A stretch of 53,581 bases of DNA from a virus (Duplodnaviria; Caudoviricetes), in IMG/VR virus record IMGVR_UViG_3300032223_002826, positions 1-53,581 of that record; one strand, written 5' to 3'. Positions 22,158 to 43,113 of this stretch are shown one piece after another. The position numbers and the translations under genes were made by a program. Each line of letters starts with the position of its first letter. Positions within the stretch are counted from its first letter, which is position 1. The notes beneath the pieces were generated by a model that saw nothing but the letters and a program-made list of their open reading frames with translations, did no database searches and was not told the origin of the DNA.

Positions 22158-22778
22158 TTAGATCTTTTTATAAACAAAGAATCTGCCAAACCAGTCGCAA
22201 TCCCTAAACATAGCGTCTAGAGCAGCCTCAGGCTCTGGTTGGCGAGCAAGCCCAGCCTGATCAAACCGCCAGCGCCACCAAGTCCGTGGCTGCATAGTAA
22301 AGTGGGTAGAGTCAGCATCGTGGGTATGTTCCTCAAAAGGAGCGTCTGAGACCCCAATCTTGAGCCAAAGTTCCCCACCCGGCTTCAGAAGTTTGATAAA
22401 GTTTTGAATCGTCTGGTCGATTAGATGGTCCTCAATATGCTCAAAGAACTCCCAAGCGCAAACAATATCCTTTCCAGAAACATGTGCCGGAAGCGGTTCA
22501 GTAGCGTCATGCTCATAAAGGTATCCCACAGCACGAGGGGCAGGATTCGATGTGGCATATTTGCTGATGTCATATCCAGTAACATCATTTCCTGCGGCTC
22601 TGGCATGGTGAACAAACCATCCTTTTGCAGCGCCAAACTCAATGATATCTAATCCTTTTCCATGATAGGTATCAATAATCTCCACAATACCAGCCCATCG
22701 CGAGTCATCGCCATAGTTAGTATAGTTTGATCCTTCAGCACGCTCGTAATATTCCTCTGGGTATAGATCGTTAGACAT
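22158..22778 (-). CDS. class I SAM-dependent methyltransferase
   Basis: IIEFGAAKGW motif I, GYDIS, DIV.AWEFFEHI, LLKPGG. Confidence 0.88.
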   Translation of the reverse strand: MSNDLYPEEYYERAEGSNYTNYGDDSRWAGIVEIIDTYHGKGLDIIEFGAAKGWFVHHARAAGNDVTGYDISKYATSNPAPRAVGYLYEHDATEPLPAHVSGKDIVCAWEFFEHIEDHLIDQTIQNFIKLLKPGGELWLKIGVSDAPFEEHTHDADSTHFTMQPRTWWRWRFDQAGLARQPEPEAALDAMFRDCDWFGRFFVYKKI

Positions 22779-24302: not shown

Positions 24303-26569
24303 TAGCAGGCGCTCCATCCGCACGAGAGGCACTTCATGCACCCCTCTTCGCGAACAAGTGAAGTATTTCCGCACTCTGTGCACAGGTCAGCACTGACCTG
24401 CTTGGCTGGCTTTGGCGCAGCATCGACAGCCTCAACCGTTGCCCCGTCTTCCGACGACGCAAGGAGCGCCTCTCCAATCGCGTGCGGGATAGCCTTGGCG
24501 AACTTGCCAAACCCTCCGACACCGAGCAACTGGCTGCCCACCTGTTTCAGGGTCGCGCCCTGCTGCAGGCTAAGGCTGACCAGTCGCCCAAGTGCCTCCC
24601 CCAACTCCATTACATCGGAACCAGCCTTACCGATTGCAACGAAGACCTCAACAGGTCGCCCCTCATCGGAGTTCACTGTTAGGTACGCTGTGCCTGCATT
24701 GGTAGAGACCTTCGTTGTCTTACCATCAAGCACCGCAGGGCGCGTCCAAGACTTTGGAGCCGTAACCTCCGTAGGCTTCTTCGGCTCCTCCTTGTAGAGA
24801 ACTTGCGTTCGCCCACAACCGTCTCGGAAATATGCAACGCCCTTGAGACCAGAATCATATGCCAGCGTATATGCCTTCTCAACATCCTCAATGGTGTGGC
24901 TGTTTGGCGCATTGATCGTCTTGCTGACTGACGAGTCAATGTGCTTCTGAGCAGCAGCCTGCACTGCAATATGCTCCTCAACCGTCACATCGTTCGAAGT
25001 AACAAAGTATGGCGGGAATGGCTTGTCGCTATTGATCTCGCGCCAGTTATCTGCAGGAGGCGCATAAACCTTGTGCGTACCCGTGCGGTCAACTCGCGTA
25101 TACTCAAAGGCAAAATAGGGCTCGATGCCACTATTTACGCCTGCGAGGATCGAGGTCGTTCCCGTCGGAGCCTGCGTGAGCAAGAAGATGTTACGCAGTC
25201 CGCTCTCCACAATCTCGCGATGGATCTTATATGGTAGTTCGCTCAGGTATGGTCGCTGCAGCATATTGTTCTTCCATGCTGGAGCAGCACCCAGTTGACC
25301 AGCCAGTTTTGCCGACTTGGAAATCGCCTCAATCTTCATCAGTTGAAAAACGCGACTCGTAAAGGTCACAGCCTCAGATGAGCCATAGCGAATGCCAAGG
25401 GAAATCATGGCGTCAGCCAAGCCCATGACGCCAAGCCCGATTCGGCGCAGTTTCTTCTGAATGTCCTCATTGTCTGGAAGGAAGTAGTAGTTCTTGTCGA
25501 CCACCTTGTCGAGGAACTCCACTGCTGTGCCGATATCTTGCGAGAAGTTATTCCAGTCAAAGACTGAGCCCTCAGCGCTATGACGAACATATGCCGCAAG
25601 GTTCATCGCACCAAGGTTGCAGACAGAGTAGGCGCCAAGACCCTGCTCGCCGCACGGGTTCACGCAAATGATGCGCTCAACCGCTGCGCCAGTGGATTCC
25701 TTGTTGTAGCGGTCAAGGAAGACAATCCCCGGCTCGCCATTGTCCCATGCTGCCTCAGCAATCTTGCGCCAGATCTCACGCGCCTTGACAGTTGCATAGA
25801 CCTTGACGGGATAGCCGTTCGCACGCCACTTGGCAATATCGCCGTCCCACTCCTCATCATAGGCTGGGTGAGCCGTATCTGGGAAACAAAGATCCCACTT
25901 GCCGTCAGACTTGACCTGCGCCATGAAGTGGTCAGAGACCGCAACCGACACATTGGCGTTGGTGATCTTAGTCAGGTCGCGCTTTGCCTCAATGAAGTCG
26001 ATGACATTTGGGTGCCAGTCGTCAATCATGAACATGGCAGCACCACGGCGCGAACCGCCCTGCTCCACCTCACCGACCGCCTTCGACGCCACATCCATCC
26101 AGCCGATAGGACCAGACGAAGTACCATTGATGCGCTTCAGGTATGCACCCTTCGGACGAAGCACCGACCAGTTGATGCCGACACCACCGCCACGGGACAT
26201 AATGTCCACCATCACGCCGATAGTATCAAAGATCGCCTCGCGGCTATCGCGCCCCTTCTCGATTGTTACTTTATCGTTCTTGCGCGCCTCTCGATGGGAT
26301 CGCGTCTCGACAGGGATCACATAGCAGTTGTAGTAAGTAACTTCTGAGTTAGCGCCAGCGCCAGCAAGGATACGCCCACCAGGGACGAACTTAAAGTTCT
26401 CGAGGATGGCACGGAAGCGTGAGGACTGGAGGGAGTCTTCGCCGATCTCGGCAGCGACACGGTCCCACATTTCTTCAGGGGTCGACTCGACGGGCTGTCC
26501 GTCAGGACCCTTCTTGGCATAACGGTCGAGGAAGACCTTAGTTCGCTGGGCATTGAGTGAGACAGGCAT
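24302..26569 (-). CDS. nrdJ: class II (adenosylcobalamin-dependent) ribonucleotide reductase
   Basis: FVPGGRIL, NCYV, GGGVG, NPCGEQ, CNLG, APTGT, DSSVSKT, C-terminal CTECG..EEGCMKC..CGWSAC; no small subunit gene; AAAGGA RBS. Confidence 0.92.
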   Translation of the reverse strand: MPVSLNAQRTKVFLDRYAKKGPDGQPVESTPEEMWDRVAAEIGEDSLQSSRFRAILENFKFVPGGRILAGAGANSEVTYYNCYVIPVETRSHREARKNDKVTIEKGRDSREAIFDTIGVMVDIMSRGGGVGINWSVLRPKGAYLKRINGTSSGPIGWMDVASKAVGEVEQGGSRRGAAMFMIDDWHPNVIDFIEAKRDLTKITNANVSVAVSDHFMAQVKSDGKWDLCFPDTAHPAYDEEWDGDIAKWRANGYPVKVYATVKAREIWRKIAEAAWDNGEPGIVFLDRYNKESTGAAVERIICVNPCGEQGLGAYSVCNLGAMNLAAYVRHSAEGSVFDWNNFSQDIGTAVEFLDKVVDKNYYFLPDNEDIQKKLRRIGLGVMGLADAMISLGIRYGSSEAVTFTSRVFQLMKIEAISKSAKLAGQLGAAPAWKNNMLQRPYLSELPYKIHREIVESGLRNIFLLTQAPTGTTSILAGVNSGIEPYFAFEYTRVDRTGTHKVYAPPADNWREINSDKPFPPYFVTSNDVTVEEHIAVQAAAQKHIDSSVSKTINAPNSHTIEDVEKAYTLAYDSGLKGVAYFRDGCGRTQVLYKEEPKKPTEVTAPKSWTRPAVLDGKTTKVSTNAGTAYLTVNSDEGRPVEVFVAIGKAGSDVMELGEALGRLVSLSLQQGATLKQVGSQLLGVGGFGKFAKAIPHAIGEALLASSEDGATVEAVDAAPKPAKQVSADLCTECGNTSLVREEGCMKCLSCGWSAC

Positions 26570-26699
26570 CTGTGCTGGTTCCTTTCTGCTATAGGGGTTT
26601 TGAGTGGATAGGTAGTATATACGCTCTTTTTCATATCTCCAAATCCTGCCGGGCGAAGAGACTGATCTAAAATGATCCATTATCACGCATAATGCCTTG

Positions 26700-27005
26700 T
26701 ACGCTCTATACCCCTATACCAGTATAGTATATATAATATATATAACATAGTATAGGTATTAGTATGTATAACGCGTATAGCGCTTATATCCTTTATCTCC
26801 TTATCCCTACCTATCACCCTTATCCTCTTATTGCTATTAGAAGGGCTCATATGCTTAGTAGTACTTAGACACTATAAGCCAATAAACGCCTCTCCTAGGG
26901 CTTCCTAGGGGCTTCTGAGGGCATTATAACCCTAGGTCGTAAATACAAAAATAATACAAAAATAATCAATATCCCCTCGACTTTTAAAACGACATGTATT
27001 TTGTT
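26700..27005. other. AT-rich tract, candidate origin unwinding element
   Basis: TA runs, repeated TTATC(C/T) and AATACAAAAAT x2; sits between divergent transcription units next to the motif array. Confidence 0.45.
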
Positions 27006-28169
27006 TAGTCACCAGCGCACTAATAAATGGGGTGGTTTGGAGCCCCCCAAAGGGGGGCTAACCAAGCACGAAGGGATCACGGCTTACCTACGCCGACCCT
27101 TACAACGCGTGCAGGAGCGCGCGCTAAATACCATGACGCGCACGAAGGCAGGTGCGCGCGGAGCGAGCACGGTAGTTTTACGCGTGCGGTAATCGCGCAG
27201 GAAACTACGCGCCTAGGTAGGCGCCTCAAGGTATCCCGAAGGGATACAAACCGCGCGAGCGTAGCGCCTAGGGGTGCATGCGGGAATACCTTGTCGCGCG
27301 CTCAAGGCGTGCGACTTACCTTGTCGCGCACGCGAGGGTACGCGTGGTTTACCTCGTCGCGGGTAGGGGCGCATGGGGTTCCTTGTCGCGCGCGCAGGCA
27401 TGGGGTTTCCTCGTCGCGGGTAGGGGCGCGTTTCCTTGTCGCGGGCGTAGGGGTAGGCGCCTTGCGCGCGGTCAAGGATAAATAACACGCGCACGGAAAA
27501 CGGCGCCCGTTGTCGCGCAGGGTTTTTACGCCTAGGCGCGCAGGGATTCTTTGACGCGGGCGTAGGCGCCTAGGCACGCGCGAAAAGGAAATCAGGCGGG
27601 CGTGGTTCATTGACGCGGGCGCGTACACCCCCGCAGGCGCGGCAAGGAAAAACACGCGCGCAGGGTTCTTTGACGCGCGTATGGGCGTAGGCGCGCGCGG
27701 AGAATAGTAAACACGCGCGTAGGCGCCCAGCGCGCGGAAATGGATAAATAACACGCGTACATGCGCACGCGTAGAAAACCCTGCGCGGTTGATCTGCGCG
27801 GGGTTTTACGCCTAGGCGCGCGGCAAGGAAGTTGCCCGCACGGGATTCCTTGGCACGCGTGCGGGTATGCGCCTATGCGCGGCAAGGAAAACATGCGCCC
27901 GTGCGGTTCATTGACGCGCCCACGGGCATGCACGCGCACGCGTAGAAGGAAAACCGCAGGCGCAGGAAAACCGCGCAGGATTGATCTGCGCGTGGTTTTT
28001 ACACGCAGGCGCGTGATTTTCATTTCTGCGCGTGCAGGGGTAGGCATGCGCGCGCGTCAAGGAAAACCTGCGGGCGTGTATGCCTAGGGGCGCGTCAATG
28101 AATCCTGCAGGGGCATGGAGACCGCAGGGAGCAACGCCCGCAGTCTCCGTGCGCCGCGCGAAGGCAAAA

Positions 28170-28216
28170 CAACCCCCTAAAGGGGGTTGACAAACCAAAA
28201 TCCGCCGTGGGATGCT
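28170..28216 (+). promoter_or_regulatory. sigma70-type promoter with hairpin overlapping -35
   Basis: CAACCCCC-TAAA-GGGGGTTG, TTGACA 28187, 18 nt, TGn-GATGCT. Confidence 0.65.
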
Positions 28217-28276
28217 TGCAAAAGCAACGCCGATGACGGCGGAGCACAAGTCCCCCGAAGGGGGAAGGAGGGCAAC

Positions 28277-28549
28277 ATGACCGAAGCGAAGATGAGCACT
28301 AAGACCCTACGGGTCTTTTTCGGCTCGGCAAGCGATGACGGCGACCTGAACGAGACCGAAGGTCTCGCGGAGCGGCTTGCCGCTCGGATCGGCTTCTCCG
28401 AAGCCTATGAGACCTCTTGGGTTGATGGATCTCCGAAGGAGATCATGAGCAATGCTCGGTATCGTGAAGCCATCGCCGTGCTCTTTACTGGCGATGGCTT
28501 CGGCTTGTGCTTGATCCCCGAAGCCGTCGTCATGGCTCGCCTAGCCTGA
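28277..28549 (+). CDS. early hypothetical protein (90 aa)
   Basis: AGGAGG RBS, own promoter and terminator. Confidence 0.8.
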   Translation: MTEAKMSTKTLRVFFGSASDDGDLNETEGLAERLAARIGFSEAYETSWVDGSPKEIMSNARYREAIAVLFTGDGFGLCLIPEAVVMARLA

Positions 28550-28566
28550 TCCCCTTCGGGGATCCG

Positions 28567-28601
28567 CCCCCTGATCCCTTCGGGGATCAGGGGGTTTTTT
28601 T
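28567..28601 (+). terminator. intrinsic terminator
   Basis: CCCCTGATCCC-TTCG-GGGATCAGGGG then TTTTTTT. Confidence 0.9.
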
Positions 28602-29573
28602 ATTCCCTTCGGGAATAAAACACGCGCGTATACGCGCCTCAAGGATAGTTATCCTTGAGGCGCCCGCAGGCACATATACGCACGCGCCTCAAGGAATATA
28701 TATTCCTTGCCGCGTAGCGCGGGCGCTTTTCATTGCCGCGCAGCGGGCGCGCTTTTCATTGTCGCGGGCGCATACACGCGCCCCTGCACGCGTAAAAAAG
28801 AACACCCGTGCTTAGGCGGATCTGAAGACTTTCACTTTAGTGAAAGTCTTCTTTACGCACCTGACTGACTACCAGCGACGCGGCTAGGCTAAACCTTCGC
28901 GCGGAGATCAAACGCGCGAGGTTTTTACGCGTGTTTTTCCTTGTCGCGCGCAGAGGCACCGAAGCAGGCGCGAAGACTGAAATCCGCACCCTAAAAACGG
29001 CGCGGGACTAAGTCGCACAGGGTTTTGTGAAGCCATCCGAAGCGCTGCCAATGCCGACGGCGTGGTTTTGGATTCCCCTTAGGGGAATCTCCGAAGCGGT
29101 CGGCAAGGGCTGCTAAAACCCCCTGAAAGGGGGTTTTCCGACACGCTAAGCGGTGTTTGGGCTTTGGGTAGGGTTCTCCCCTTCGGGGAGAAAAAACCGC
29201 GTTTATGCTCGCTTTTCATTGTCGCGCGCTCAACGCGCCCGCGCACGCGGATAAATGAACCGCGCTCCAAAAACAGCGCGCAGTAAACGGCGCCCAGTTT
29301 TTGAGTAGCCACGCGGAAATCAACTAACGCGCGCAGGTGTATACGCGCGCACGCGCGTAAAAGGAAATAACGCGCGCTACTTAGACGCGCCAGCGAACAC
29401 ACCTAGCGACGCGCCCGTGCACATATATACGCATGTACGCGCGCGCCTAACGCGCGAGCGCAGGGCTACGGCTCGTAAAACTCCGCAGAGTTTTACAGCG
29501 CGCAGGGCTGAAGAGAGCAAAATCCTACGGATTTTGCGACTTCGCAACGCAGGCACGCGCGCGAGTATCCGAC

Positions 29574-29701
29574 CGCTTTTTCTTTGCGAAGAAAAAGCGA
29601 CTTCATCGCTATACCCTAAAGGGTATAGCGATGTCATCCCTTTACTCCAAGAGGAGTAAAGGGATGTTTTCTATTCTCGTGGCAATCGTAGATTGCCACG
29701 A
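29574..29701. repeat. four tandem perfect inverted repeats
   Basis: CGCTTTTTCTT/AAGAAAAAGCG; CATCGCTATACCC/GGGTATAGCGATG; CATCCCTTTACTCC/GGAGTAAAGGGATG; TCGTGGCAATC-GTA-GATTGCCACGA. Confidence 0.9.
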
Positions 29702-29906
29702 TAATAGGGATTTGCGGCGATTTGAGGCTGCCGACCCCCCTTTTTGGGCTGCCATGGCTCCCCCTTTTCCAAACGAGCCTATCCCTCGTTCTTTTACTTC
29801 GGTGTAAACACCTCGTAAAATAACTTCGGTCTAGGCTCGTTTGCGTGCGCGCTCGGGGGCGCAAAAGTTTTGCGCGCCTCATGATGCGCAAGCGCGTAGC
29901 GCGTAA

Positions 29907-29977
29907 GTGTGTGCGCGTGTACATGTGCGCGTATACGCGTATACATGTGCGCGTATATGTGTACATATGCGCGCGTG
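29907..29977. repeat. 71-bp perfect alternating purine-pyrimidine tract
   Basis: GTGTGTGCGCGTGTACATGTGCGCGTATACGCG...ATATGCGCGCGTG without a break. Confidence 0.9.
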
Positions 29978-30135
29978 GAAAGGCTGAATATTTTTCGTAG
30001 AAAAATATTTTATATGTGCATAATGCGAAGGGACGCCATGATGTGAGCAGCGTTCAGAATCTCTTTTTTCAGTAAGAAAAAGAGATTTTACTACGCGCGT
30101 ATTTATACGCATGCGACGCATACGCGCATCACACG

Positions 30136-30217
30136 GCGTGTCAATACTAAATACCTTCGGTATTTACCCTTACTTCGTAAGGGTCGTATTGACACGCGAG
30201 GAAGGCTCTGGGATTGT
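30136..30217 (+). promoter_or_regulatory. T-shaped palindromic element A plus promoter (TTGACA 30189, 17 nt, TGn-GATTGT)
   Basis: 12-bp outer arms enclosing two 19-nt triloop hairpins. Confidence 0.8.
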
Positions 30218-30265
30218 TGTTGAGGAAGCGGCGCCAAATCGCCGCATCGGATCGGAGGTCTCGCA

Positions 30266-30643
30266 ATGGCTAGGACAGCACGAACACTCGTCAAGCAGCA
30301 CACTCTGGTTGCAACCACATATGAGGCAGCGGTTCTCGCCGCAACTATTGCCCCCTACGGGGCAAATGCGATTGCCCTTGACACTGATGGGGTAATCGCC
30401 GCAGTAGTCTATAAGACTACTTGCGGTTGGCAGATTGAGCGTTCCGCCGATTGCCCTTGGGCAATCCGTGGTCTTGTGATGCAGTTTACTGCATCACATA
30501 TGCTCATGAAGGATGCGATTCGCCGCCTTCGCCAGATTCAGCGCCTCGCCGTTGCAGATCCTAATGAGGATCTGCATGAGTACGAGGAGGATGAGACCAA
30601 TACCTATAAGGTATTGTGCAACAAGTGCAACCAGTATGCCTGA
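30266..30643 (+). CDS. early hypothetical protein with C-terminal Cys/His motif
   Basis: GGAGG RBS; 125 aa. Confidence 0.75.
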   Translation: MARTARTLVKQHTLVATTYEAAVLAATIAPYGANAIALDTDGVIAAVVYKTTCGWQIERSADCPWAIRGLVMQFTASHMLMKDAIRRLRQIQRLAVADPNEDLHEYEEDETNTYKVLCNKCNQYA

Positions 30644-30707
30644 TCCCTTTGGGATCAGATACAATCGCCCCTCCCCTTCGGGGGAGGGGCAAGCAGGAGG
30701 TGTAAAC

Positions 30708-31085
30708 ATGGCGGAATCCCTTCGGGATTATGTTCTTGCAAACGGCGGTGCAACTATTCTCCTTGAGAATAGTTCGCCATACACTGCAGAAAACGGCTAC
30801 GCCGTTGGCGTTGCGACTGGCACATACTTTCGGGTACCAGTTGCTACAGCAACTGCAGAGCAACTTGGAGCGCTTGTGAATAATATCAAGGATATTATTC
30901 ATCTAGGCGGCACGATTCTTGACGAAGCCAACGCAGTTGGCTTTTGGGTGAATGATGGATGGATCCACATTGACCCAGTGCAGATCGTCCCTTCGGGACG
31001 AGACGCCATCAACCTAGGGTATGAGCGAAAGCAGGAAGCGATCTATGACTTCCGTAGGAAGTCAGAAATCTTCTTGCCCCGCTAA
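30708..31085 (+). CDS. early hypothetical protein
   Basis: AGGAGG RBS, start MAESLRDY; GFW..DG.I.ID...A...G..RKQEAIYD. Confidence 0.8.
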   Translation: MAESLRDYVLANGGATILLENSSPYTAENGYAVGVATGTYFRVPVATATAEQLGALVNNIKDIIHLGGTILDEANAVGFWVNDGWIHIDPVQIVPSGRDAINLGYERKQEAIYDFRRKSEIFLPR

Positions 31086-31105
31086 TCCCAAAGGGATTAC
31101 CAAAG

Positions 31106-31129
31106 CCCCGCCCTCTTCGGAGGGCGGGG
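31106..31129 (+). terminator. UUCG hairpin at operon end
   Basis: CCCCGCCCTC-TTCG-GAGGGCGGGG; no U-tract. Confidence 0.5.
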
Positions 31130-31353
31130 TGAGCACATATATGTAGAGGTGTGTGCATACACCTAGCCGTATGCACACACTCCTGCAGATATGCAGGCGC
31201 ACACACATACACGCGTGCGGGCGCGCACGCACGCACACACGCGTACATACGCGCGTAAAAACCTCTCCAAAAAAACAAAGTTTTTTTAGTAGGGGCAGTG
31301 CTAGTAGCGACGCGGATCGGAAGCAATCCCTAAAGGGATTGGGAAGGAGAAAC

Positions 31354-31644
31354 ATGCAGAAAAACGATCACAGTCAGGTAGGTTATACGCAGGAGCAAAT
31401 CAATAAGTTCATGGAAATGCATACCCTTGTCGTAGACAAGGAAGCGATGCAGGCTCTTCGTGATGAAGTCAAATGGCTTCGTGAGGTGATCGCCAATCTC
31501 CGTAAGGAGATTGATAACCTCCAAGCAGAGAAGTTGCCTATGGCAACTTGTGCCGCTTGCCACGAAGACTTTCCACATAACAAAGTTATGTGGGTCGCCA
31601 ATCGCTACGAATGCGAATGGTGCTACGAGCGCTTGTCCATATGA
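31354..31644 (+). CDS. coiled-coil plus zinc-finger protein
   Basis: AAGGAG RBS; heptad stretch; CAAC...CEWC. Confidence 0.75.
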   Translation: MQKNDHSQVGYTQEQINKFMEMHTLVVDKEAMQALRDEVKWLREVIANLRKEIDNLQAEKLPMATCAACHEDFPHNKVMWVANRYECEWCYERLSI

Positions 31645-31651
31645 GCGCACA

Positions 31652-31732
31652 CTTGTCAAGACTAAAACCCTACGGGTTTTACCTATACGAAGTATAGGTC
31701 GTCTTGACAAGCGGGAAGGGTTGCCGTACCTT
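31652..31732 (+). promoter_or_regulatory. T-shaped palindromic element B plus promoter (TTGACA 31704, 17 nt, TACCTT)
   Basis: 11-bp outer arms enclosing two 19-nt triloop hairpins. Confidence 0.8.
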
Positions 31733-31802
31733 GGAAATCGTCAAGCCGCCGACGGCAAACGGCGGAGATCGGTAAGTGCCCTAAAGGGCAAGGAGGTCGC
31801 TC

Positions 31803-32297
31803 ATGTCGCTCAACTGGAATGTTGCAAAGGTAGCAGACGGAGTCTGCTGGGAGCCTAAGTTTGACAGCAAGGGCAACCCCGTCATCGGAGATGACGGCAA
31901 GCAGGTTGAGACTATGCGTTGGGAAACGGATGCGCTCATCTGGCAGACGATGATAATCGGGCTCAACAACATTACCGAAGGTAATGTGGATGAATGGGTC
32001 TACCGATTGTCGCTTCTCGCGGTGTTGGACAACGGAGTTGGGACTCGCTTTGTTGATGACAAATGGGTTCGGACTTATCTGACGGAGTCAGATGTTCGCC
32101 GCCACATTGGGCTCTATACGAATGCGACGCAGCAAACTCGTAAAGAGTTTGAGAAGCGATTCCTTGAGTGGGTTCACGAAAGGGGTATCGGCACCCTTCG
32201 GGATGCCGAAGAGGATCAGGCAGACTTTGAGCAGCGCCACACCTATGTCGTAGACAAGGGATGGTACTCGGTTGAGAAGTTGGCGGAAGCAATCTAG
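31803..32297 (+). CDS. early hypothetical protein
   Basis: AGGAGG RBS; 164 aa. Confidence 0.8.
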   Translation: MSLNWNVAKVADGVCWEPKFDSKGNPVIGDDGKQVETMRWETDALIWQTMIIGLNNITEGNVDEWVYRLSLLAVLDNGVGTRFVDDKWVRTYLTESDVRRHIGLYTNATQQTRKEFEKRFLEWVHERGIGTLRDAEEDQADFEQRHTYVVDKGWYSVEKLAEAI

Positions 32298-32327
32298 CAA
32301 TGCCCCTTCGGGGCAAGGAGGTACAAC

Positions 32328-32882
32328 ATGACGGACACTGAAGTTCTACACCCTGAAGGGTGTAAGGTAGACGGCGCAACTTGTATCTCATGCAATGAGC
32401 ATGAGTGCGACACCTCTAGCACGGATTGGCAGTATGCCAATCGTCAAGAAGGTTGGCTCTGCTACTCCTGCTATTGCTCCGACACTGAACATGGTTCAGT
32501 GATCACGACGATTGAGCAGGACGGGACGGAGTCCCGTACGCTTATCGGGGATTATGTGGCGATGGACGCGGAGTTTGGCGACTTCGTGAATAGCGAGAAT
32601 GTGGTTCGCGAATACCATCGTACCGATGGTTGGCGAGGACACTACTGCACAACCCTAAAGGGTTGGACGGAAGTTGAGGATGGCGTTGCCCTTGCTGGCA
32701 TGCCGACTCCTGCTACTGATCTTGCAAGCAAGATCAAGGATGCACAAGAGGAGGGTTTCTTGCCTTGCAAGATTGCCATCATCTCCGATCCTACGAGCAA
32801 TGTGTTCTCGGTTGGCGTGTCCTTCTTCGTAGAAGAAGGCAATGAGGAAGTGTTTACCCAATGGGTAAAGGAGGTTGCATGA
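32328..32882 (+). CDS. early hypothetical protein with Cys-rich N-terminus
   Basis: AGGAGG RBS; CISC...CYSC. Confidence 0.8.
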   Translation: MTDTEVLHPEGCKVDGATCISCNEHECDTSSTDWQYANRQEGWLCYSCYCSDTEHGSVITTIEQDGTESRTLIGDYVAMDAEFGDFVNSENVVREYHRTDGWRGHYCTTLKGWTEVEDGVALAGMPTPATDLASKIKDAQEEGFLPCKIAIISDPTSNVFSVGVSFFVEEGNEEVFTQWVKEVA

Positions 32883-33094
32883 GCAAGGTTTTGTGCCATC
32901 GTTGCAATAAAACGATCCGTAAGGATCGTGTCTTCATGCTGTTGTTCACCCCATTCCATAAGGAATGTGCCATGATCTTCGGCGGGATGATGATTATGGC
33001 AACTCCCGATCCTATAGATCGGGATATTCTTACCCGTATTGTGTACGGCGACAAAGTCGCCGACAACATCAAAAACAAGGAGGTGCAAGCATGA
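32879..33094 (+). CDS. small zinc-binding protein
   Basis: ATGA coupling; CHRC...HKEC. Confidence 0.7.
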   Translation: MSKVLCHRCNKTIRKDRVFMLLFTPFHKECAMIFGGMMIMATPDPIDRDILTRIVYGDKVADNIKNKEVQA

Positions 33095-33354
33095 ATCGGA
33101 TCGCTATCATCATTCTGATGATTATGGCTGCTTTTGTTGGGTTCTTTTTGCCGCCATCAGCCGCCGTTGAGACGCTTCTCAACGGCGAACACTTCCGACA
33201 AAACTACCCTGATGGTAGTTTTATGGTTGGTGTTATCTACTACGACGAAGTCGTAGGGGATCGTTGCGCAATGGGAACAATGCACACCGCTGATGGCAAG
33301 GTTTACAACCTTGACAAGTGGTGCGGCGATGACCTACTCCCCGTTGGGGAGTAG
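33091..33354 (+). CDS. small membrane-anchored or secreted protein
   Basis: AGGAGG RBS; hydrophobic N-terminus MNRIAIIILMIMAAFVGFFL. Confidence 0.7.
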   Translation: MNRIAIIILMIMAAFVGFFLPPSAAVETLLNGEHFRQNYPDGSFMVGVIYYDEVVGDRCAMGTMHTADGKVYNLDKWCGDDLLPVGE

Positions 33355-33557
33355 CGCTTTGCTCACACCCCTGCCCTCTATGTGAGGGTAGGAGCGTGTG
33401 CAATCGCACATGGTGTATGTATATGCATACGCACATATACACATGGGCGCGCGTATACGCACGCGCTCGCTCGCGCACATATACGCGCGGGAAAAAGTTG
33501 GAAAACCAACTAGCATGACGGCATAGGTTAGCGACGCGTAAGAAAAGCGACGCAGCC

Positions 33558-33605
33558 CAATCCCCCTAAAGGGGGTTGACAACCAGTTTTTTGAGATGCT
33601 ATCAT
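33558..33605 (+). promoter_or_regulatory. sigma70-type promoter with hairpin at -35
   Basis: CCCCC-TAAA-GGGGG, TTGACA 33576, 18 nt, TGn-TATCAT. Confidence 0.85.
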
Positions 33606-33651
33606 GTATATAGGCGAGGGAAGTCCCCTTGGCAGATCGGGAGGTGCAAAC

Positions 33652-34074
33652 ATGAAGGTTCTGAAGGTATCGCTAAGCAACGAGGATGTTGCAGGCATTA
33701 TTCATACCGCCGTTGAGGGTGGTACGAACTACTGGGGCGAAGTGCGCGGCTACAAGTGGACGACTTGGTATGAACCAGACCCCGAAAAGTCGTACGACGA
33801 CGAGTATGGATCGTACAAGGCGGAGCGTGTCAAGGGTCTCCCCAAAGACTTTGTCTTTGTTGAGATTCGCGAGGATGAGGATCTTACTGATCCTGAACGC
33901 AAACCGAATACTTGGTTCCCTCTTACAAGGGAAGCGATTGAGCGAGGAGTTTGCATGGTTCTTGAGAACCATGGGCACCTTATCAACATTCGGGATGGCG
34001 AGATTGACACTGATGCCTACGGCGCCGATGCCATCGTTCAGATGGCAGTGTTCGGTGAACTCGTCTATGGGTGA
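33652..34074 (+). CDS. early hypothetical protein
   Basis: GGAGG RBS; EGGTNYW and DA..ADAIVQ.AVFGELVYG. Confidence 0.8.
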   Translation: MKVLKVSLSNEDVAGIIHTAVEGGTNYWGEVRGYKWTTWYEPDPEKSYDDEYGSYKAERVKGLPKDFVFVEIREDEDLTDPERKPNTWFPLTREAIERGVCMVLENHGHLINIRDGEIDTDAYGADAIVQMAVFGELVYG

Positions 34075-34243
34075 GCGATGGGAGCAGCGAGCGGCGGCGC
34101 GAGATGCCAAGCGCCGTCGCCGCAACAATCCGATGGACACCTTCTATCAGAAGGTATGGCACGATATTGATCGGCTACGAGCCGATCGCAACAAGGAGGT
34201 GCGACATGATCGTAAGGGCACACGCTCGTCAACGACTCGCTGA
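34067..34243 (+). CDS. possible small Arg-rich protein
   Basis: fills the gap between two genes; weak RBS. Confidence 0.35.
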   Translation: MGERWEQRAAARDAKRRRRNNPMDTFYQKVWHDIDRLRADRNKEVRHDRKGTRSSTTR

Positions 34244-34514
34244 GCGTCTATCTGCTGCAGAGCAGCAGCAGGCTATCAGTCATGCTGCTCAGATCGCCCC
34301 TTCCGTAAGGAAGGGAGATGGAGTGGCAGCCGTGCTTCTCCGACTGGAGAAGCGACGCAACAATGGCAAGCGCTCCGTTTCTAACGGAGACATGGTTGTC
34401 GGCATCATTCGGGATGGCGAACTTATCACCATCATGATGCGCCGCGCTAGTCAGGTATTGGACGCAGCGACGCTACGCGTTCAGCAAGTGGTTGATGCAA
34501 CATTGGCGGCATGA
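34206..34514 (+). CDS. HAxxRxxER-motif protein (possible RelE/DUF4258-like fold)
   Basis: AGGAGG RBS; HARQRLAER...VVGIIRDGELITIM. Confidence 0.6.
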   Translation: MIVRAHARQRLAERLSAAEQQQAISHAAQIAPSVRKGDGVAAVLLRLEKRRNNGKRSVSNGDMVVGIIRDGELITIMMRRASQVLDAATLRVQQVVDATLAA

Positions 34515-34518
34515 AAAC

Positions 34519-34567
34519 CAATCCCCCACAAGGGGGGTTGACAAGCCGAAAAACGGCAGGTTATCAT
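34519..34567 (+). promoter_or_regulatory. sigma70-type promoter with hairpin at -35
   Basis: TTGACA 34538, 18 nt, TATCAT 34562. Confidence 0.85.
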
Positions 34568-34573
34568 GTATAT

Positions 34574-34890
34574 ACACGAGACGGCTTCATCGGCTGTCTC
34601 GGATCGGCTCGGTACCAACAGGTTCCTAGGACTGCTGTTGGACTGAGCACGGGGTGAGATTGGACGAGCGAGCGATCCGCAGCCCTAAGTGCGGAAGAGA
34701 GGCATGGCAGAGCGATGGCAACTAGGACAGACGCTGTAAGTCTGGGAGTTGTAGGTGGTTCGGTTGTAGCCGACGGGCATGACAACCGAGCAGCCAACGA
34801 GCGGCGTATCGCTACCGACGGGTGGCGATGCGTTGCTCGGATCGTGGCGGAAGGGTGCATACGAAAGTTCAGCCCCTTCCGCCACCATTG
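34574..34890 (+). ncRNA. candidate structured non-coding RNA or long leader
   Basis: directly after a promoter; at least six helices with many G-U pairs; the first strong RBS is at 34907. Confidence 0.65.
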
Positions 34891-34918
34891 TTTGGAAAAC
34901 AAAAGTAGGAGGTGCAAC

Positions 34919-35197
34919 ATGGGGTACGCAACGGCAATCGGCATAGCCGATAGTGGATTGGATTTGGATGTTCAGTTGCAGTGGCATTTCACGAGCAACT
35001 GCTACCCGCCTATTCCGCTCGGAATGATTGAGCCAGCAAAGGCAGCCATTGCGCTTGCGCAAAGTGGCGAGTCGGACAAGATGGTAGCGATGCCAGAAGG
35101 CGTTGAGCACCGAAAGTATGGGACGCAGGTTCCTGCATGGGTGCTCATTCATTCGCTGCACTTGGAAGCATTCGCAGACGCAAGCGAGGAGGAGTAA
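34919..35197 (+). CDS. early hypothetical protein
   Basis: AGGAGGTGCAAC-ATG. Confidence 0.8.
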   Translation: MGYATAIGIADSGLDLDVQLQWHFTSNCYPPIPLGMIEPAKAAIALAQSGESDKMVAMPEGVEHRKYGTQVPAWVLIHSLHLEAFADASEEE

Positions 35198-37945: not shown

Positions 37946-38818
37946 ATGAGCAACAAGGTTTACGAGGTGATCGCCGAAAGCATCACCAATGCACTGGACA
38001 AAGGCGTCGTGCCATGGCGCAAGCCGTGGAACGCGGAGCAGATGACGCCACGCAACATGAAGGGCGTGCCGTATCGTGGCATCAATGTGTGGTTGCTCAT
38101 GCTGCAGGGTCATGGTAGCCCGTATTGGGCAACCTACAAGCAGGTCAACGAGGCTGGCGGCACGATTGTGGCAGGCGCAGAAGGTACGCCTATTGTGTTC
38201 TGGTCGCGCTACGAGGTTGAAGACGAGAATGCAGGCGGCGAAAAAACCGTCAAGAGCATCCCTGTGATTCGCTACTACAAGGTGTTCAATCAGTCGCAGA
38301 TCAAGGGCATTGAGTTCCCTCCGCTGCCTACGGTAGGCAAGAGCGAGTTCTCGCCGATTGAGGCTGCAGAGCGTGTGATTTCATCTATGCCAAAGCGCCC
38401 AGACATTAGCGATAATGGTGGAGCCAAGGCGTATTATGTCCCCTCGCAGGATAGTATTCACATGCCAAGCAAGGATACCTTTGAGAGCGCAAATGGGTAT
38501 TATGCGACGCTCTTCCACGAGATGGCGCATAGCACTGGGCATTCGTCTCGCCTCGCTCGCAAGAGCGTTGATGAAGCGGCGCCATTCGGTAGCGACATCT
38601 ACGCTCAGGAAGAGTTGATTGCTGAGTTTGCTTCGGCGTTCCTCTGCGGAGAGACTGGCATCTCGCCGTCGGTGATTGAGAACGCTGCAGCATATATTGC
38701 TGGCTGGAAGCGAGCGATCAAGGACGACACCCGTGCCGTGATCTCCGCAGCAAGCAAGGCGCAGAAGGCGGCTGACTACATCCTCGGACGGGAGGATGCA
38801 GTTGCCAAGGCAGCGTAG
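37946..38818 (+). CDS. ardC: ArdC-family antirestriction / ssDNA-binding zincin protein
   Basis: GVVPWRKPW, YRGIN..LL, WATYKQ, VFN..Q, AYY.P..D.I.MP, TLFHEMAHSTGH, YA.EELIAE, AAYIAGW. Confidence 0.93.
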   Translation: MSNKVYEVIAESITNALDKGVVPWRKPWNAEQMTPRNMKGVPYRGINVWLLMLQGHGSPYWATYKQVNEAGGTIVAGAEGTPIVFWSRYEVEDENAGGEKTVKSIPVIRYYKVFNQSQIKGIEFPPLPTVGKSEFSPIEAAERVISSMPKRPDISDNGGAKAYYVPSQDSIHMPSKDTFESANGYYATLFHEMAHSTGHSSRLARKSVDEAAPFGSDIYAQEELIAEFASAFLCGETGISPSVIENAAAYIAGWKRAIKDDTRAVISAASKAQKAADYILGREDAVAKAA

Positions 38819-40227: not shown

Positions 40228-40716
40228 TTACTTGCGCTTTCGCGCTAACTGCTGTTGCTTCGTGTACGCTTTTATTTCAACATCTTGCTGGGGCTGTTCG
40301 CCCTCAATGTCGAGCAAGCGACGCTCTGCTTCAAGCAGTTCGCGATGGCGCTCCTCCGTGATGATGTGGAGATAAGGAATCAGTTTGCCATTTACATGTG
40401 TCGGCGATGCATTCGTCGGCTCAATGCGAATCAGCGGCTTCTTCCCGTTCTGAAAGGACACCTCATTGATGAGGATCCACCACTTCCACAACTTCGCAGG
40501 AACGATTACTTGCTTTGATTCACCAGCATAGGTTCGGCTCAGCGTATCAAAACGCAGAGCGGTAATGTGACCCACGCGCCCAGTACTGCTGACAGTCCCC
40601 ATCCCCGGACGCATCCGAGGATCGGGACCATCATAGGCGAGTAGCCATTTGCCCATTCGCCGCTCCGCGTCCTTTGATCGGCGCAACCTGCGCTTGATCT
40701 CGGACGCCTCGCTCAT
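40228..40716 (-). CDS. PD-(D/E)xK-like nuclease, possible Holliday junction resolvase
   Basis: AER..., FD.L....AGESK pattern; replication operon. Confidence 0.5.
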   Translation of the reverse strand: MSEASEIKRRLRRSKDAERRMGKWLLAYDGPDPRMRPGMGTVSSTGRVGHITALRFDTLSRTYAGESKQVIVPAKLWKWWILINEVSFQNGKKPLIRIEPTNASPTHVNGKLIPYLHIITEERHRELLEAERRLLDIEGEQPQQDVEIKAYTKQQQLARKRK

Positions 40717-41489
40717 CGGTGGATGCTGCGAATGCTACGCTTGAGGTGACCAAAGGTCTGGCGAAGAACCTCGACATCCGCATCGCAGTGTTCTGCGATG
40801 AGGTCGTAGGCGGTATTGTCGCCAGAGACAGCCCTGTCCCAAGTGACCACATCAAGTGGGGTCTTCTTGGCTGCAGTGCCAAAGTACTTGCTCACGGACT
40901 CAAGTGAGCGACGACCAATCCGCATGGATGAGCCGCTCGCCTGATACATCAAGTCGATGTGCATCCAAGGATCAAGACGCTTGCTTGAGCCGTGGAATGC
41001 TGTACGCCCATTAAGCACGGGAATATCAAACAACTTGCCGTTCCATGAGACAAGGATGTCGAACTGGTTTAGGCGATCAATATACGCTTCCACCAACTCC
41101 TTGTCATCGAGAAGACGATTCGTGCCAGGGAACATGTCACGGCTGAATCGCTCGACCTTACCCCACTCGTCAGTGACGGCGGCATAAAGGACGCGTGGCT
41201 GCGTCGAGAAGGTCGTCTCGATATCGAAGAAACCAATCGTGAAGCCGAGATAATCAGCCCCAGTCGCAGCGTTCTTCTTGGTCTTTGGGAGTTTCGCTGG
41301 CTTTAGCGTCTGGCTCTTGAGAGCCTTCACAGCCTGTGCCTCGAGATTCCCGTCTCGCTGCAACTTCCCCTTACGCTGCCGATAGGCATCGTAGGAGATG
41401 TCGGGATATCGAACCTTGAAGTCCGACCATCCAAGAACGGAGACAGCCTTGTCCTCGTCCTTAGCCCAGAAATGATTGCCATTTGGCAT
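40713..41489 (-). CDS. RNase H-like 3'-5' exonuclease (DnaQ/YprB-like)
   Basis: FFDIET, SWNGKLFDIP, HIDL, HCDADV; GGAG RBS. Confidence 0.88.
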   Translation of the reverse strand: MPNGNHFWAKDEDKAVSVLGWSDFKVRYPDISYDAYRQRKGKLQRDGNLEAQAVKALKSQTLKPAKLPKTKKNAATGADYLGFTIGFFDIETTFSTQPRVLYAAVTDEWGKVERFSRDMFPGTNRLLDDKELVEAYIDRLNQFDILVSWNGKLFDIPVLNGRTAFHGSSKRLDPWMHIDLMYQASGSSMRIGRRSLESVSKYFGTAAKKTPLDVVTWDRAVSGDNTAYDLIAEHCDADVEVLRQTFGHLKRSIRSIHR

Positions 41490-41493
41490 CACT

Positions 41494-41706
41494 CTACTCC
41501 TCTGCATCCTTACGCCTGAACAACCGAGACATAGGGATCTCCCTTCGGTAGACCACTCGTCGCTGTCGCTCCTCGCTGAGGACACCTACTTCGCGCAAGG
41601 ATTTTCCTTGCGCATTTGATGCCTGCGTGAGCAGGCATTCTGTCATTGCCTCCAAATCTTGGAGGTCAGGCATTGGCGGCATCGGCTTTACCTTGCGGCG
41701 TGCCAT
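41494..41706 (-). CDS. hypothetical protein
   Basis: GAGG RBS; fills operon gap. Confidence 0.6.
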   Translation of the reverse strand: MARRKVKPMPPMPDLQDLEAMTECLLTQASNAQGKSLREVGVLSEERQRRVVYRREIPMSRLFRRKDAEE

Positions 41707-42070
41707 CGTTCAACCTCTTTACCGCTTTCTTGGCGGCTCGACTGCGTCGCTGCCGTAAGGCAGCGGGGGTTGCAGTGGTGAAATCAGTAGCCTGCTCTGC
41801 CTTCAGGCTATCTGCCCACCCTGTAAGAGCCACTCTATCGGCGGTCGACATCTCCGTTAGCATTTCCTCTGCCTCAAGGAGGTCAAGATGAAAATCGTTT
41901 CCAATCGCTGACGGATACGAGAAGTCAATACCAACGCGATTGTATCCCTGAAGGATGATGCTGCCACCGTGATTCTTCAAGGCTGAGCGAATCGCGTGGC
42001 GCTCAGCAAGCAGGCGAAGAAAGTACTTCGTCGTGTATGAGAGCGCTTTGATTTCAGTTGCGTTTGCCAT
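41666..42070 (-). CDS. sigma-factor region-4-like HTH protein, possible late activator
   Basis: LDL.EA..ML..MS..DR..L......ATPAALRQRRSRAAKK. Confidence 0.5.
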   Translation of the reverse strand: MANATEIKALSYTTKYFLRLLAERHAIRSALKNHGGSIILQGYNRVGIDFSYPSAIGNDFHLDLLEAEEMLTEMSTADRVALTGWADSLKAEQATDFTTATPAALRQRRSRAAKKAVKRLNDGTPQGKADAANA

Positions 42071-42072
42071 AT

Positions 42073-43113
42073 CTATAGGATAACAGGTGCAAGGTGATAT
42101 GACCAACTTACATCAAGATCGGAGATCTTGATTGGCGTGGTCTTATCGTGGTTCCAAGAAAGGCGAATCTTCTTTCCAGAGAGCCCCCTGACGGCATCTT
42201 CAAGTAGGCTGGCGGCAAGCCAGATGGATCCGCGCCCATCGCTTGTCGCAGGCATGCGGATGGCGGCTCCTTCGTTTGCCTTTGGGAACAGCGTAAGCGT
42301 CTCGCTTTCGGCAAGCAATCGCACCCTGCCAAACTCATCGCCATTAGACGACATCTTTAGATTCTCAAGCAACGGCTTCCGATCGACAACCACACTGGCT
42401 GAATACTGATCTACCGATGGCAAAAGCGGAGGCGTGTTATCCAAGTCGGAACGATGGATTGCAAGATATTTACCAGCCTTGATGCTAGTCATTCGTTCGC
42501 CATGGTGCGTAGCGATACCAGCGCTATCAATCCCCTTGACTGACTTGCAAAACGATGCAAAAACAGCATGCAGTGGAGCATTACCGTGGCGTGCGTCAAC
42601 AGCAAGGGTATGCTTCAGGGCATAAAATCCAAGGCGATCAGCATACTCAAAGTATGCATACTTGCCAGTGCCAAACTTCTCCTCCACGCCATCTACAGCC
42701 TTTGCCAAAGTCTCAAGGAACCCAGCAGGAAATGGCGCAGAAGAAACTACGGTGCTAGGCGCTCGATTCCATTCAGATGGAACCTTATTATCACCGACGA
42801 TAGGGAGATCGACTGAGGCGGCGCCGAAGCGAAGGCGCACTCCAGTATTGCCGACCGTCAAGTCGACCTCCCCTTTCCCCTTGAGGCTCTTTGCTGCGGA
42901 CAGGAGCAGCCGAGCGGGGACAATAGCCAAACCGTTTTCTTTGGTCTCAGCGGCGTCAACGATAAGGGTGCTGCTGTCATCACCAGCGATGAACTTGAGT
43001 CGACCAGCCGCAGCCTGAATAAGGATGCGGTCTGTCGGCGTTGGTGCCTTCTCCCTAATCGCAGCAAAACGACCAAGGTTTTCGCAGACTTCACGCAGTT
43101 CTTCGACGAGCAA
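42073..43113 (-). CDS. divergent DNA polymerase III beta sliding-clamp-like protein
   Basis: 346 aa; ILI.A..G.L...A.D, G..IVPAR.L, V.R..L...LK, C-terminal TPI.I....Y.LAPV. Confidence 0.75.
   Translation of the reverse strand: MLVEELREVCENLGRFAAIREKAPTPTDRILIQAAAGRLKFIAGDDSSTLIVDAAETKENGLAIVPARLLLSAAKSLKGKGEVDLTVGNTGVRLRFGAASVDLPIVGDNKVPSEWNRAPSTVVSSAPFPAGFLETLAKAVDGVEEKFGTGKYAYFEYADRLGFYALKHTLAVDARHGNAPLHAVFASFCKSVKGIDSAGIATHHGERMTSIKAGKYLAIHRSDLDNTPPLLPSVDQYSASVVVDRKPLLENLKMSSNGDEFGRVRLLAESETLTLFPKANEGAAIRMPATSDGRGSIWLAASLLEDAVRGLSGKKIRLSWNHDKTTPIKISDLDVSWSYHLAPVIL

Follow-up and report, generated by a model that had tools for sequence, protein, structure and literature searches.

Left-handed Z-DNA that absorbs supercoils, small hairpins that extrude at phage promoters, and degenerate simple-sequence repeats are the closest described counterparts of the DNA analyzed here. 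Inserted (CG)n tracts reportedly flip upstream of active promoters in Escherichia coli plasmids, a result attributed to Rahmouni and Wells (1989). Torsional buffering by Z-DNA is a stated hypothesis for bacteria, and direct evidence from living cells that bacterial Z-DNA has a regulatory role is called limited in a 2026 review (PMC13463272). The small promoter hairpins of coliphage N4 extrude at a superhelical density (sigma) of -0.035 and need a C:G closing pair and a loop with 5' G and 3' A, according to PMC4496689. Alternating patterns are generally suppressed in prokaryotes, as stated in PMC4060949. We analyzed the IMG/VR record IMGVR_UViG_3300032223_002826 (Duplodnaviria; Caudoviricetes) in its entirety (53,581 bp, hereafter the window), focusing on a set of long tracts of strict purine/pyrimidine (R/Y) alternation in the early control region of this phage.

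With a run defined as strict R/Y alternation over at least 12 bp, 20 of the 29 runs in the window lie within 27751-33489, an interval that makes up ~11% of the genome (Table 1). The nine tracts listed in an earlier sequence-only reading of this DNA proved to be perfect alternations exactly where it had placed them, and the interval holds 11 further runs of at least 12 bp. The same reading had described the tracts as all intergenic, which holds under predicted gene calls using Shine-Dalgarno starts: all 20 runs are located in predicted noncoding DNA (26851-28276, 28550-30265, 31086-31353, and 33355-33651). The 20 runs, 12-71 bp long, show the alternation of CG, CA/TG, and TA steps over at least 8-12 bp by which Z-DNA-prone sequence is operationally recognized. 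The alternating blocks start just past unit-closing hairpins (g1 stop at 28549, block from 28620; g3 stop at 31085, block from 31133; g8 stop at 33354, block from 33413). Promoter-like TTGACA hexamers are present at 28187, 30189, 31704, and 33576, the last belonging to an 11/12 match with an 18-nt spacer. The longest tract (hereafter, the 71-mer) ends 212 bp before the hexamer at 30189 and flanks the AT-rich hairpin segment 29978-30100 on the left; block 33413-33489 ends 87 bp upstream of the promoter-like site 33576-33605; and the tracts of 27751-28057, which lie in or adjoin the spacers of TTCCTTGNCGCG ... CGCGNCAAGGAA inverted units, are 130-414 bp upstream of the hexamer at 28187. The twin-domain model predicts negative supercoils between divergent arms, where the latter tracts are located.

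Table 1. Alternating tracts and promoter-bearing inverted repeats of the early control region
Feature	Coordinates	Strand	Sequence and surroundings
23-bp (27751-27773), 19-bp (27926-27944), and 14-bp tracts	27751-28057		Inside the array of repeats that separates the divergent arms
Tracts of 18, 18, and 14 bp	28620-28781		Immediately after the g1 terminator hairpins
23-bp and 31-bp tracts	29337-29359, 29416-29446		In the ORF-poor stretch 28550-30265
71-bp perfect alternation, longest tract	29907-29977		YR steps: 11 CG, 15 CA/TG, 9 TA
12-bp (30104-30115) and 14-bp (30116-30129) tracts	30104-30129		Right side of the AT-rich hairpin segment 29978-30100
R/Y-rich inverted repeat with tracts of 13, 14, and 13 bp	31133-31196		Directly after the g3-end hairpin
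23-bp (31197-31219) and 37-bp (31221-31257) tracts	31197-31257		One G between the two; rich in CG and CA/TG; between g3 stop (31085) and g4 start (31354)
Tracts of 33 (33413-33445), 20, and 18 bp	33413-33489		Two short interruptions; after g8 stop (33354)
Promoter-like TTGACA (30189-30194)	30139-30196	+	Hexamer within the right arm of an outer inverted repeat (10 bp) that surrounds two inner hairpins
Promoter-like TTGACA (31704-31709)	31653-31712		Same design, different letters; hexamer again within the right arm (outer repeats of the two sites, 10-11 bp)

The number and the length of these runs exceed chance expectation. Across 200 dinucleotide-preserving shuffles of 27600-33600, the average number of runs was 2.4 and the longest measured 23 bp, compared with the 20 runs and the longest run of 71 bp observed. 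Summed run length was compared with 500 shuffles for each of the four intergenic blocks; in three, none of the 500 reached the observed value, and in the fourth, a fraction of 0.002 did. Markov models of orders 1-5 (1000 simulations each) were trained on the region's own 3,707 nt of noncoding DNA, which makes them conservative. At each order, none of the 1000 simulations contained a run of at least 71 bp, and the longest simulated run was 69 bp. Orders 4 and 5 reproduced the summed length of the short runs (P = 0.25 and 0.65), so that only tracts of at least ~31 bp exceed the local oligomer composition. The excess is two-layered: an R/Y- and CGCG-rich vocabulary explains runs up to ~25 bp but leaves the long tracts (71, 37+23, 33+20+18, and 31 bp) unexplained. 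This vocabulary is evident from CGCG counts of 29-58 per kb here vs 0-13 elsewhere, with CGCG and GCGC enriched ~10-fold across 27-30 kb. Among 210 other viral, metagenomic, and genomic loci (2,336,077 bases), there were 308 runs of at least 12 bp (0.13 per kb), the longest spanning 23 bp. A limited literature search found no description of extended alternating stretches from the early region of any phage.

The tracts recur in related genomes assembled independently. An independent IMG/VR contig, L002, which is 94-98% identical to the window and covers it up to 29633, keeps all eight covered tracts, including all those of 27751-28057 as well as 29337-29359 and 29416-29446, with a single A/G transition (29425) in 160 tract bases. 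The interval 29600-33600 is covered by contigs of four public sequencing runs from two studies; one of these runs, X1, possibly represents the sample from which the window was derived, and the others are X2 and X3 (study P1) and X5 (study P2). Contigs of the latter three cross all three long blocks without the loss of any tract, and their neighboring genes differ from those of the window by 1-7%; 31197-31257 is spanned with 2-7 differences over 339-540 bp. None of the 40 differing positions listed, out of 114, falls in a tract. The sole change in tract length is a 12-nt insertion after 29922 in the X3 contig, whose first base is a purine and last base a pyrimidine and which thus extends perfect alternation to 83 bp; X2 and X5 are gap-free across the 71-mer. 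Low-complexity DNA can in principle be misassembled, and short unrelated (CA)n-type contigs align to 31197-31247. Nevertheless, the same tracts with their flanks attached are found in L002 and in the contigs from both studies, which rules out the assembly error that the sequence-only reading had named as fatal to its idea and leaves an assembly or sequencing artifact with a negligible chance. The same contigs reveal mosaicism at exact gene boundaries, as judged from the aligned sequences: in L002, g1 (28277-28549) is a strongly diverged allele with fewer hairpins between flanks that are 94-98% identical, and in the X5 contig, 85 bp at the g4 start (31349-31435 in the window) are replaced by 20 other letters.

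The origin of the longest tract by even-register duplication is seen directly. Tandem Repeats Finder (TRF) detected 2.9 copies of a 22-nt period in 29910-29976, with nested 14-nt and 8-nt units; the 22-nt copies at 29914-29935 and 29936-29957 differ by one transition, and the remaining 27 nt of the 71-mer are alternating but not clearly repeated. A period of 4 was found at 31224-31242, where CGCA is repeated 4.8 times. Thus, the periodicity that characterizes microsatellites is present in these two segments; it is absent from 29416-29446 and 33413-33445, and TRF detected no tandem repeat in the former tract or anywhere in 33413-33489. Only even-offset misalignments have homology in an alternating tract, so that a tract growing by slippage or duplication stays alternating with no need for selection. 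Slippage origin was another condition under which the sequence-only reading would have abandoned its proposal; tandem duplication and length polymorphism support such an origin in part. The 31- and 33-bp tracts lack periodicity. Its statement that the tracts share alternation but not sequence likewise stands in part: no word is common to all long tracts, but ATACGCGC recurs within 26851-33651 and the 71-mer contains 22-nt copies.

These observations bring in the strongest competing explanation, namely, that the tracts are functionless simple-sequence DNA, a by-product of slippage and duplication in CGCG-rich noncoding spacers in which alternation is kept without selection. The period-22, -14, -8, and -4 arrays in the two strongest tracts, the pair of 22-nt copies one transition apart, the alternating 12-nt insertion in one strain, the gain and loss of whole repeat units between the window and L002, and the ability of order-4/5 composition to reproduce runs up to ~25 bp all fit this explanation. 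So do the homologous spacers of the only distant relative, L003/G001 (hereafter G001; terminase 61% and reductase 52% identical), which hold other low-complexity repeats and only short runs. The same explanation does not account for a run of 71 bp, which appeared in none of the 5,000 simulations trained on the region itself, for the 31- and 33-bp tracts in which TRF found no repeat, for tract positions that are unchanged in every spanning contig, or for the contrast with 2.3 Mb of other loci where the longest run is 23 bp. Furthermore, strong selection at the DNA level is visible in this genome, from which four 4-bp palindromes are absent and in which hairpins are embedded in coding sequences, making unselected junk less likely here. 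We regard functionless simple sequence as somewhat unlikely, and rank it a close second.

The palindromes in question, counted over the whole genome (observed vs expected), are AGCT (0/212), GGCC (0/179), AATT (0/155), and ACGT (0/139), and CCGG is depleted (28 vs 112 expected). L002 shows the same pattern of absence, and G001 lacks AGCT only (0 vs 243 expected). From these counts, the absence looks like avoidance of several 4-cutter restriction systems. Because ACGT is absent genome-wide, the alternating tracts never contain it.

The sequence-only reading had proposed modelling of the SIBZ type, and we applied a simplified partition function of this kind, with assumed helical constants and supercoiling stiffness and with the dinucleotide energies and the junction cost of 5 kcal/mol given in Table 1 of PMC3024258. 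In the 10-kb domain that contains the tracts (25000-35000), the modelled onset of the transition is at sigma -0.0325, in 31133-31257, and this block reaches a modelled P(Z) of 0.94 at sigma -0.035. The onset precedes all controls: five other 10-kb domains of the phage begin at -0.04 to -0.0425 and six dinucleotide shuffles at -0.0375 to -0.04. Thus, in the simplified model, the B-Z transition comes earlier than in the controls and at physiological superhelicity. At sigma -0.05, the mean Z content is 85 bp in the tract domain and 29-44 bp in the controls, a difference of ~2-fold. The individual tracts are predicted to respond at different levels. The composite tract 31197-31257 flips at sigma ~-0.033 and is the best Z-DNA candidate according to the model; the 71-mer follows near -0.055, with P(any Z) of 0.29 at sigma -0.05 and 0.78 at -0.06; 29337-29359 has P(Z) of 0.44 and 0.62 at the same two levels; and 33413-33489 transforms latest, with P(Z) of 0.12-0.48 at sigma -0.05 to -0.07.

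Cruciform extrusion by a specific hairpin was considered as the reason for the long tracts and was ruled out by fold z-scores and energy costs. For the long tracts, nearest-neighbor energies put the cruciform at 63-69 kcal/mol for 6-7 turns, with a threshold of ~-0.08, and the cost of Z-DNA at ~60 kcal/mol for 13.5 turns, that is, Z-DNA is calculated to be cheaper per turn absorbed. The perfect tracts are not more self-complementary than alternating shuffles (z = -0.6, -1.3, -1.15, and +1.85), and the 31-mer 29416-29446, to which the last of these values belongs, is less so. Among the folded tracts, only the inverted repeat 31133-31196, with a perfect 12-bp stem at 31149-31180, is a specific hairpin by these calculations, folding as single-stranded DNA at -17.5 kcal/mol (z = -4.1; none of 200 shuffles as stable). 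Given that the long tracts show no extra self-complementarity and that the cruciform is dearer, the alternation itself, rather than a specific hairpin, is the feature, and left-handed DNA is the alternative structure that the long tracts are predicted to favor.

On this basis, we tentatively rank first, at somewhat less than an even chance, the reading that the tracts are duplication-born spacers at early operon ends that were kept because they respond to supercoiling. The tracts would have grown by even-register duplication and slippage in a noncoding vocabulary rich in CGCG, TATA, and CATG. After injection, gyrase would supercoil the genome negatively, and transcription away from the divergent and early promoters would add further negative supercoils. 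The CG/CA-rich tract 31197-31257 would then switch to Z-DNA at sigma ~-0.033, and the TA-richer tracts 29337-29359, 29907-29977, and 33413-33489 would follow at ~-0.045 to -0.06; 29907-29977 and 31197-31257 could each take up ~12-13.5 helical turns. This switching would compete with the extrusion of ~80 hairpins and of the inverted repeats that bear -35 boxes, so that the tracts would set or buffer the torsional level at the early promoters. The operon-end hairpins that the tracts directly follow lack a T-run, for which reason the tracts may additionally hinder read-through in a supercoil-dependent manner. Under the model, the tracts are candidates for Z-DNA formation in vivo and for each of these regulatory effects, as we infer. 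The reading agrees with the findings that these extreme tracts are genuine, do not occur outside the early control region, and are kept across strains, and that G001 has a 10-fold local excess of short runs in its homologous early spacers. The suggestion of the sequence-only reading that the tracts serve as torsional buffers or switches appears physically sound in the model and fits the surroundings, with the partial slippage origin counting against it.

Several observations weigh against the supercoil-responsive reading. All eight scorable substitutions in tracts (one between strains and seven between internal copies) are transitions, which, given the population transition share of 0.69 (113/164), corresponds to P ~0.07, so that selection for alternation is not demonstrated. 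Nor are tract bases clearly better conserved than their surroundings: a hand count within a 1,090-bp blastn segment between the window and L002 gave 1 change per 104 bp in tracts vs 16 per 986 bp in flanking noncoding DNA. The tracts bear the marks of simple sequence, tandem units and one 12-nt length polymorphism, and the runs of G001 are at most 20 bp long and are explained by order-2/3 composition (P = 0.09-0.23). In the same model, every other domain flips by ~-0.04, a margin of only ~0.0075; the model includes neither competition from melting or hairpins nor Z-Z junctions, and some of its constants are assumed. A search for a Z-alpha domain in the six-frame translation of the window found none. 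The tract-promoter distances vary (87, 212, and 130-414 bp), and transcription-driven supercoils between operons of the same direction should partly or largely cancel.

In G001, 11 of the 30 runs of at least 12 bp are located in homologous early spacers (4.5 runs per kb vs 0.46 overall), and CGCG is in three- to fourfold excess there. Judging from the two sequences, a compositional habit is common to the window and G001 across a deep split, and the long tracts are specific to the window lineage. The G001 spacers have an architecture of their own, with a perfect palindrome of 16 bp, built around AGAACGTACGTTCT and present seven times, at 40331-42509 (minus strand of L003, 8960-6770), tandem heptamer and hexamer repeats between the palindromes, and, beside a promoter-like site, two 9-mers that we take to resemble DnaA boxes. 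No relatives at intermediate distance were found in searches of viral, metagenome, and genome contigs. The ribonucleotide reductase matched only L002 (99%) and L003/G001 (52%) among viral contigs, with at most 62% identity in metagenome contigs (a partial match) and at most 51% in genome contigs, and none of these metagenome and genome loci had unusual tracts. The protein encoded at 32328-32882 matched no viral contig. A scan with the 14-nt repeat motif returned ~118 chance matches and the L002 contig, and a scan with 19 nt of flank returned a single match that was unrelated by blastn.

The recurrence of short words within the tracts raises the possibility of arrays of protein sites, in which a phage or host factor reads CGCG words (ATACGCGC, CGCGTATA) and alternation is incidental to their packing. 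ATACGCGC (with its complement) and TACGCGCG each occur 16 times in the window, 11 and 12 times, respectively, within 26851-33651; CGCG blocks are spaced by 8, 14, and 22 nt in the 71-mer; other motif arrays are present nearby, among them that of TTCCTTGNCGCG (22 copies), and AGCGACGCG is placed upstream of -35 hexamers; and several early ORFans contain CxxC pairs, for which Pfam gives only weak zinc-ribbon-like matches. However, no word is found in all long tracts, 33413-33445 has a single CG step, the spacing to promoters is not fixed, sequence-specific sites would not need unbroken alternation over 31-71 bp, and none of the 10 early proteins belongs to a recognized DNA-binding family in Pfam or PHROGs. 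We therefore consider this explanation improbable. The TTCCTTGNCGCG array itself extends over 27287-29226 and consists of 22 copies (at most one mismatch) in both orientations, often paired as inverted units of 44-46 bp with a GC/RY-rich 20-nt center and in part spaced by 57-60 bp; whole units were gained or lost between the window and L002. From its layout, the array could represent iterons or operators.

The tracts are embedded in a field of small hairpins. Counting perfect hairpins with a stem of at least 7 bp and a loop of 3-8 nt, 82 are located in 28000-35000 vs 54 in the other 46.6 kb; 39 are inside seven early coding sequences (2,577 nt), where 0.63 were expected from 100 dinucleotide shuffles (maximum, 4). 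Among the 55 triloops of 28000-35000, 33 are GNA on one strand or the other (18 plus, 15 minus), and 27 are GNA loops closed by C..G; outside this interval, GNA-type loops account for 5 of 26 triloops, and 3 of the 26 are also C..G-closed. A hairpin typically has the core CC(C)-loop-GG(G). That the loops are strand-symmetric points to DNA-level palindromes over RNA. The strand bias of UNCG and GNRA tetraloops concerned too few cases to tell, and continuation of the stem past a mismatch, seen in 5 of 106 hairpins and in none of the five through a G.T pair, likewise concerns too few to weigh. G001 has no such field (28 hairpins in 65 kb). This field may be the more important finding in the window, and the hairpin surroundings provide the strongest indirect argument for a DNA-structural role of the tracts.

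The tracts might instead act in RNA, with transcribed copies folding as long duplexes that serve, for example, as processing or stability sites in polycistronic or read-through early transcripts. The interval from g3 to g4 yielded no promoter-like site, which makes transcription of 31133-31257 probable, and this segment includes the specific hairpin 31133-31196 (z = -4.1); moreover, alternating sequence folds well in general, the 71-mer reaching -20 kcal/mol as single-stranded DNA. On the other side are the perfect tracts, which fold no better than alternating shuffles, the hairpin loops, which are strand-symmetric and hence point to DNA, the lack of Rfam matches in the window, and the position of several tracts upstream of promoters, past a T-run terminator. 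Taken together, this makes an RNA role quite improbable, more so than protein-site arrays. What then remains of the probability is shared between the artifact and readings that did not occur to us.

The promoter-like sites themselves are built into potential DNA structures: the two outer inverted repeats with TTGACA in the right arm, 30139-30196 and 31653-31712, have folding energies of -16 to -19 kcal/mol for each strand. TTGACA directly borders a CCCCC-TAAA-GGGGG hairpin at 28170-28192 and at 33563-33581. In addition, AGCGACGC(G/A)G recurs in early spacers (33531, 33549, 37847, 31310, 28873, and 29405), and the copies at 33549 and 37847 begin 27 nt upstream of a TTGACA hexamer; on the strength of this placement, the motif may be an activator or regulator site. 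The early genes within 28250-34000 have a small GC hairpin abutting a GGAGG-type Shine-Dalgarno sequence before nearly every start (for example, 28254-28275, 31324-31353, 31779-31802, and 32304-32327).

A broader extension of the supercoil-responsive reading, to which we assign a low probability, is that the 7-kb early region is a built-in torsional device that senses or buffers gyrase-introduced supercoils and thereby times early transcription. On full transformation, the hairpins have a calculated capacity of 161 turns and the tracts of 95 turns, and the linking deficit of the genome is -155 turns at sigma -0.03. Such a device, composed of ~80 C-GNA-G mini-hairpins and ~0.44 kb of Z-prone tracts, would have a capacity of ~250 turns, on the order of the genome's unconstrained supercoiling. 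The R/Y tracts would be the element that combines a low threshold with a high capacity and, at operon ends, would double as barriers gated by supercoiling, and the promoters timed would be those whose -35 boxes sit in extrudable inverted repeats. If real, the device would be a natural example, from a bacterial virus, of Z-DNA in gene control.

The genome that contains this region is probably complete and circularly assembled, given its 82-bp terminal repeat, and probably represents a novel siphovirus-like phage of 53.6 kb. No cultured phage is close (top terminase identity, 28%), and no blastn match to 27001-35000 or to 29880-30130 was obtained among INPHARED phages. The minus-strand arm (1-26686) encodes the tape measure protein, portal, large terminase, capsid, and ribonucleotide reductase; a series of small plus-strand genes with strong Shine-Dalgarno sites starts at 28277; and an ArdC-like protein, tyrosine integrase, DnaB, primase, a clamp-like protein, dNMP kinase (49732-50322), and holin are encoded to the right of the early genes. 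The largest ORFs are those of the tail and tape-measure proteins and ribonucleotide reductase. The ArdC-like anti-restriction protein (37946-38818; ArdcN and a zincin peptidase domain) is at the end of the early/middle plus-strand block. None of the 10 early proteins could be assigned to a Pfam family, and only two matched PHROG families, both of unknown function. Among the ~60 ORFs scanned, the sole methyltransferase is a generic SAM methyltransferase (22158-22778), no cytosine DNA methyltransferase, a possible stabilizer of Z-DNA, was seen, and no DNA polymerase was recognized; the window contains no detectable tRNAs. Between the divergent arms, 26690-27000 is AT-rich (35-39% GC), contains 9-nt and 11-nt tandem repeats, and coincides with the minimum of the cumulative GC skew, features from which a replication origin or a divergent promoter zone may be surmised.

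Compared with the Z-DNA supercoil sinks or "flipons" and the sites predicted by methods of the SIBZ or Z-Hunt type (PMC3024258), the tracts share perfect alternation of CG, CA/TG, and TA steps, a modelled B-Z transition within physiological superhelicity, and a promoter-proximal noncoding location. Unlike those systems, they are natural, mixed-sequence tracts of 31-71 bp in a phage, placed at the ends of early operons among extrudable hairpins; a Z-DNA-binding domain was not found, and Z formation is a prediction of the model only. The likeness to degenerate dinucleotide microsatellites, or "cryptic simplicity," consists in the tandem units inside the tracts, the duplication in even register, and a length that is polymorphic among strains. 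What sets the tracts apart from microsatellites is that they keep their positions from strain to strain, that two of the long ones are without detectable periodicity, and that they occur in a compact phage genome, in a group of organisms that usually suppresses such patterns (PMC4060949).

The surroundings of the tracts are closest to those of coliphage N4, with small hairpins in the early region, C..G closing pairs, and triloops with 5' G and 3' A, and the logic proposed here, in which gyrase-introduced supercoils gate early expression, is that of N4. N4 differs in that its three such promoters are read by a virion RNA polymerase of giant size; the present phage has ~80-100 hairpins, which vary in their stems, occur on both strands, and in many cases lie within genes, and its promoters look sigma-70-like. 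The T7-like polymerase family PF00940 gave no six-frame match in the window, a result that says little because control genomes were equally silent. We know of no N4 counterpart of the R/Y tracts. Set beside these systems, the tracts of this phage are natural, measure 31-71 bp, occupy defined positions beside promoter-like sites, and can be cloned for standard supercoiling assays; if functional, they would provide a compact model of torsional gene control, and if not, a clear case of even-register slippage building long Z-prone tracts in a virus.

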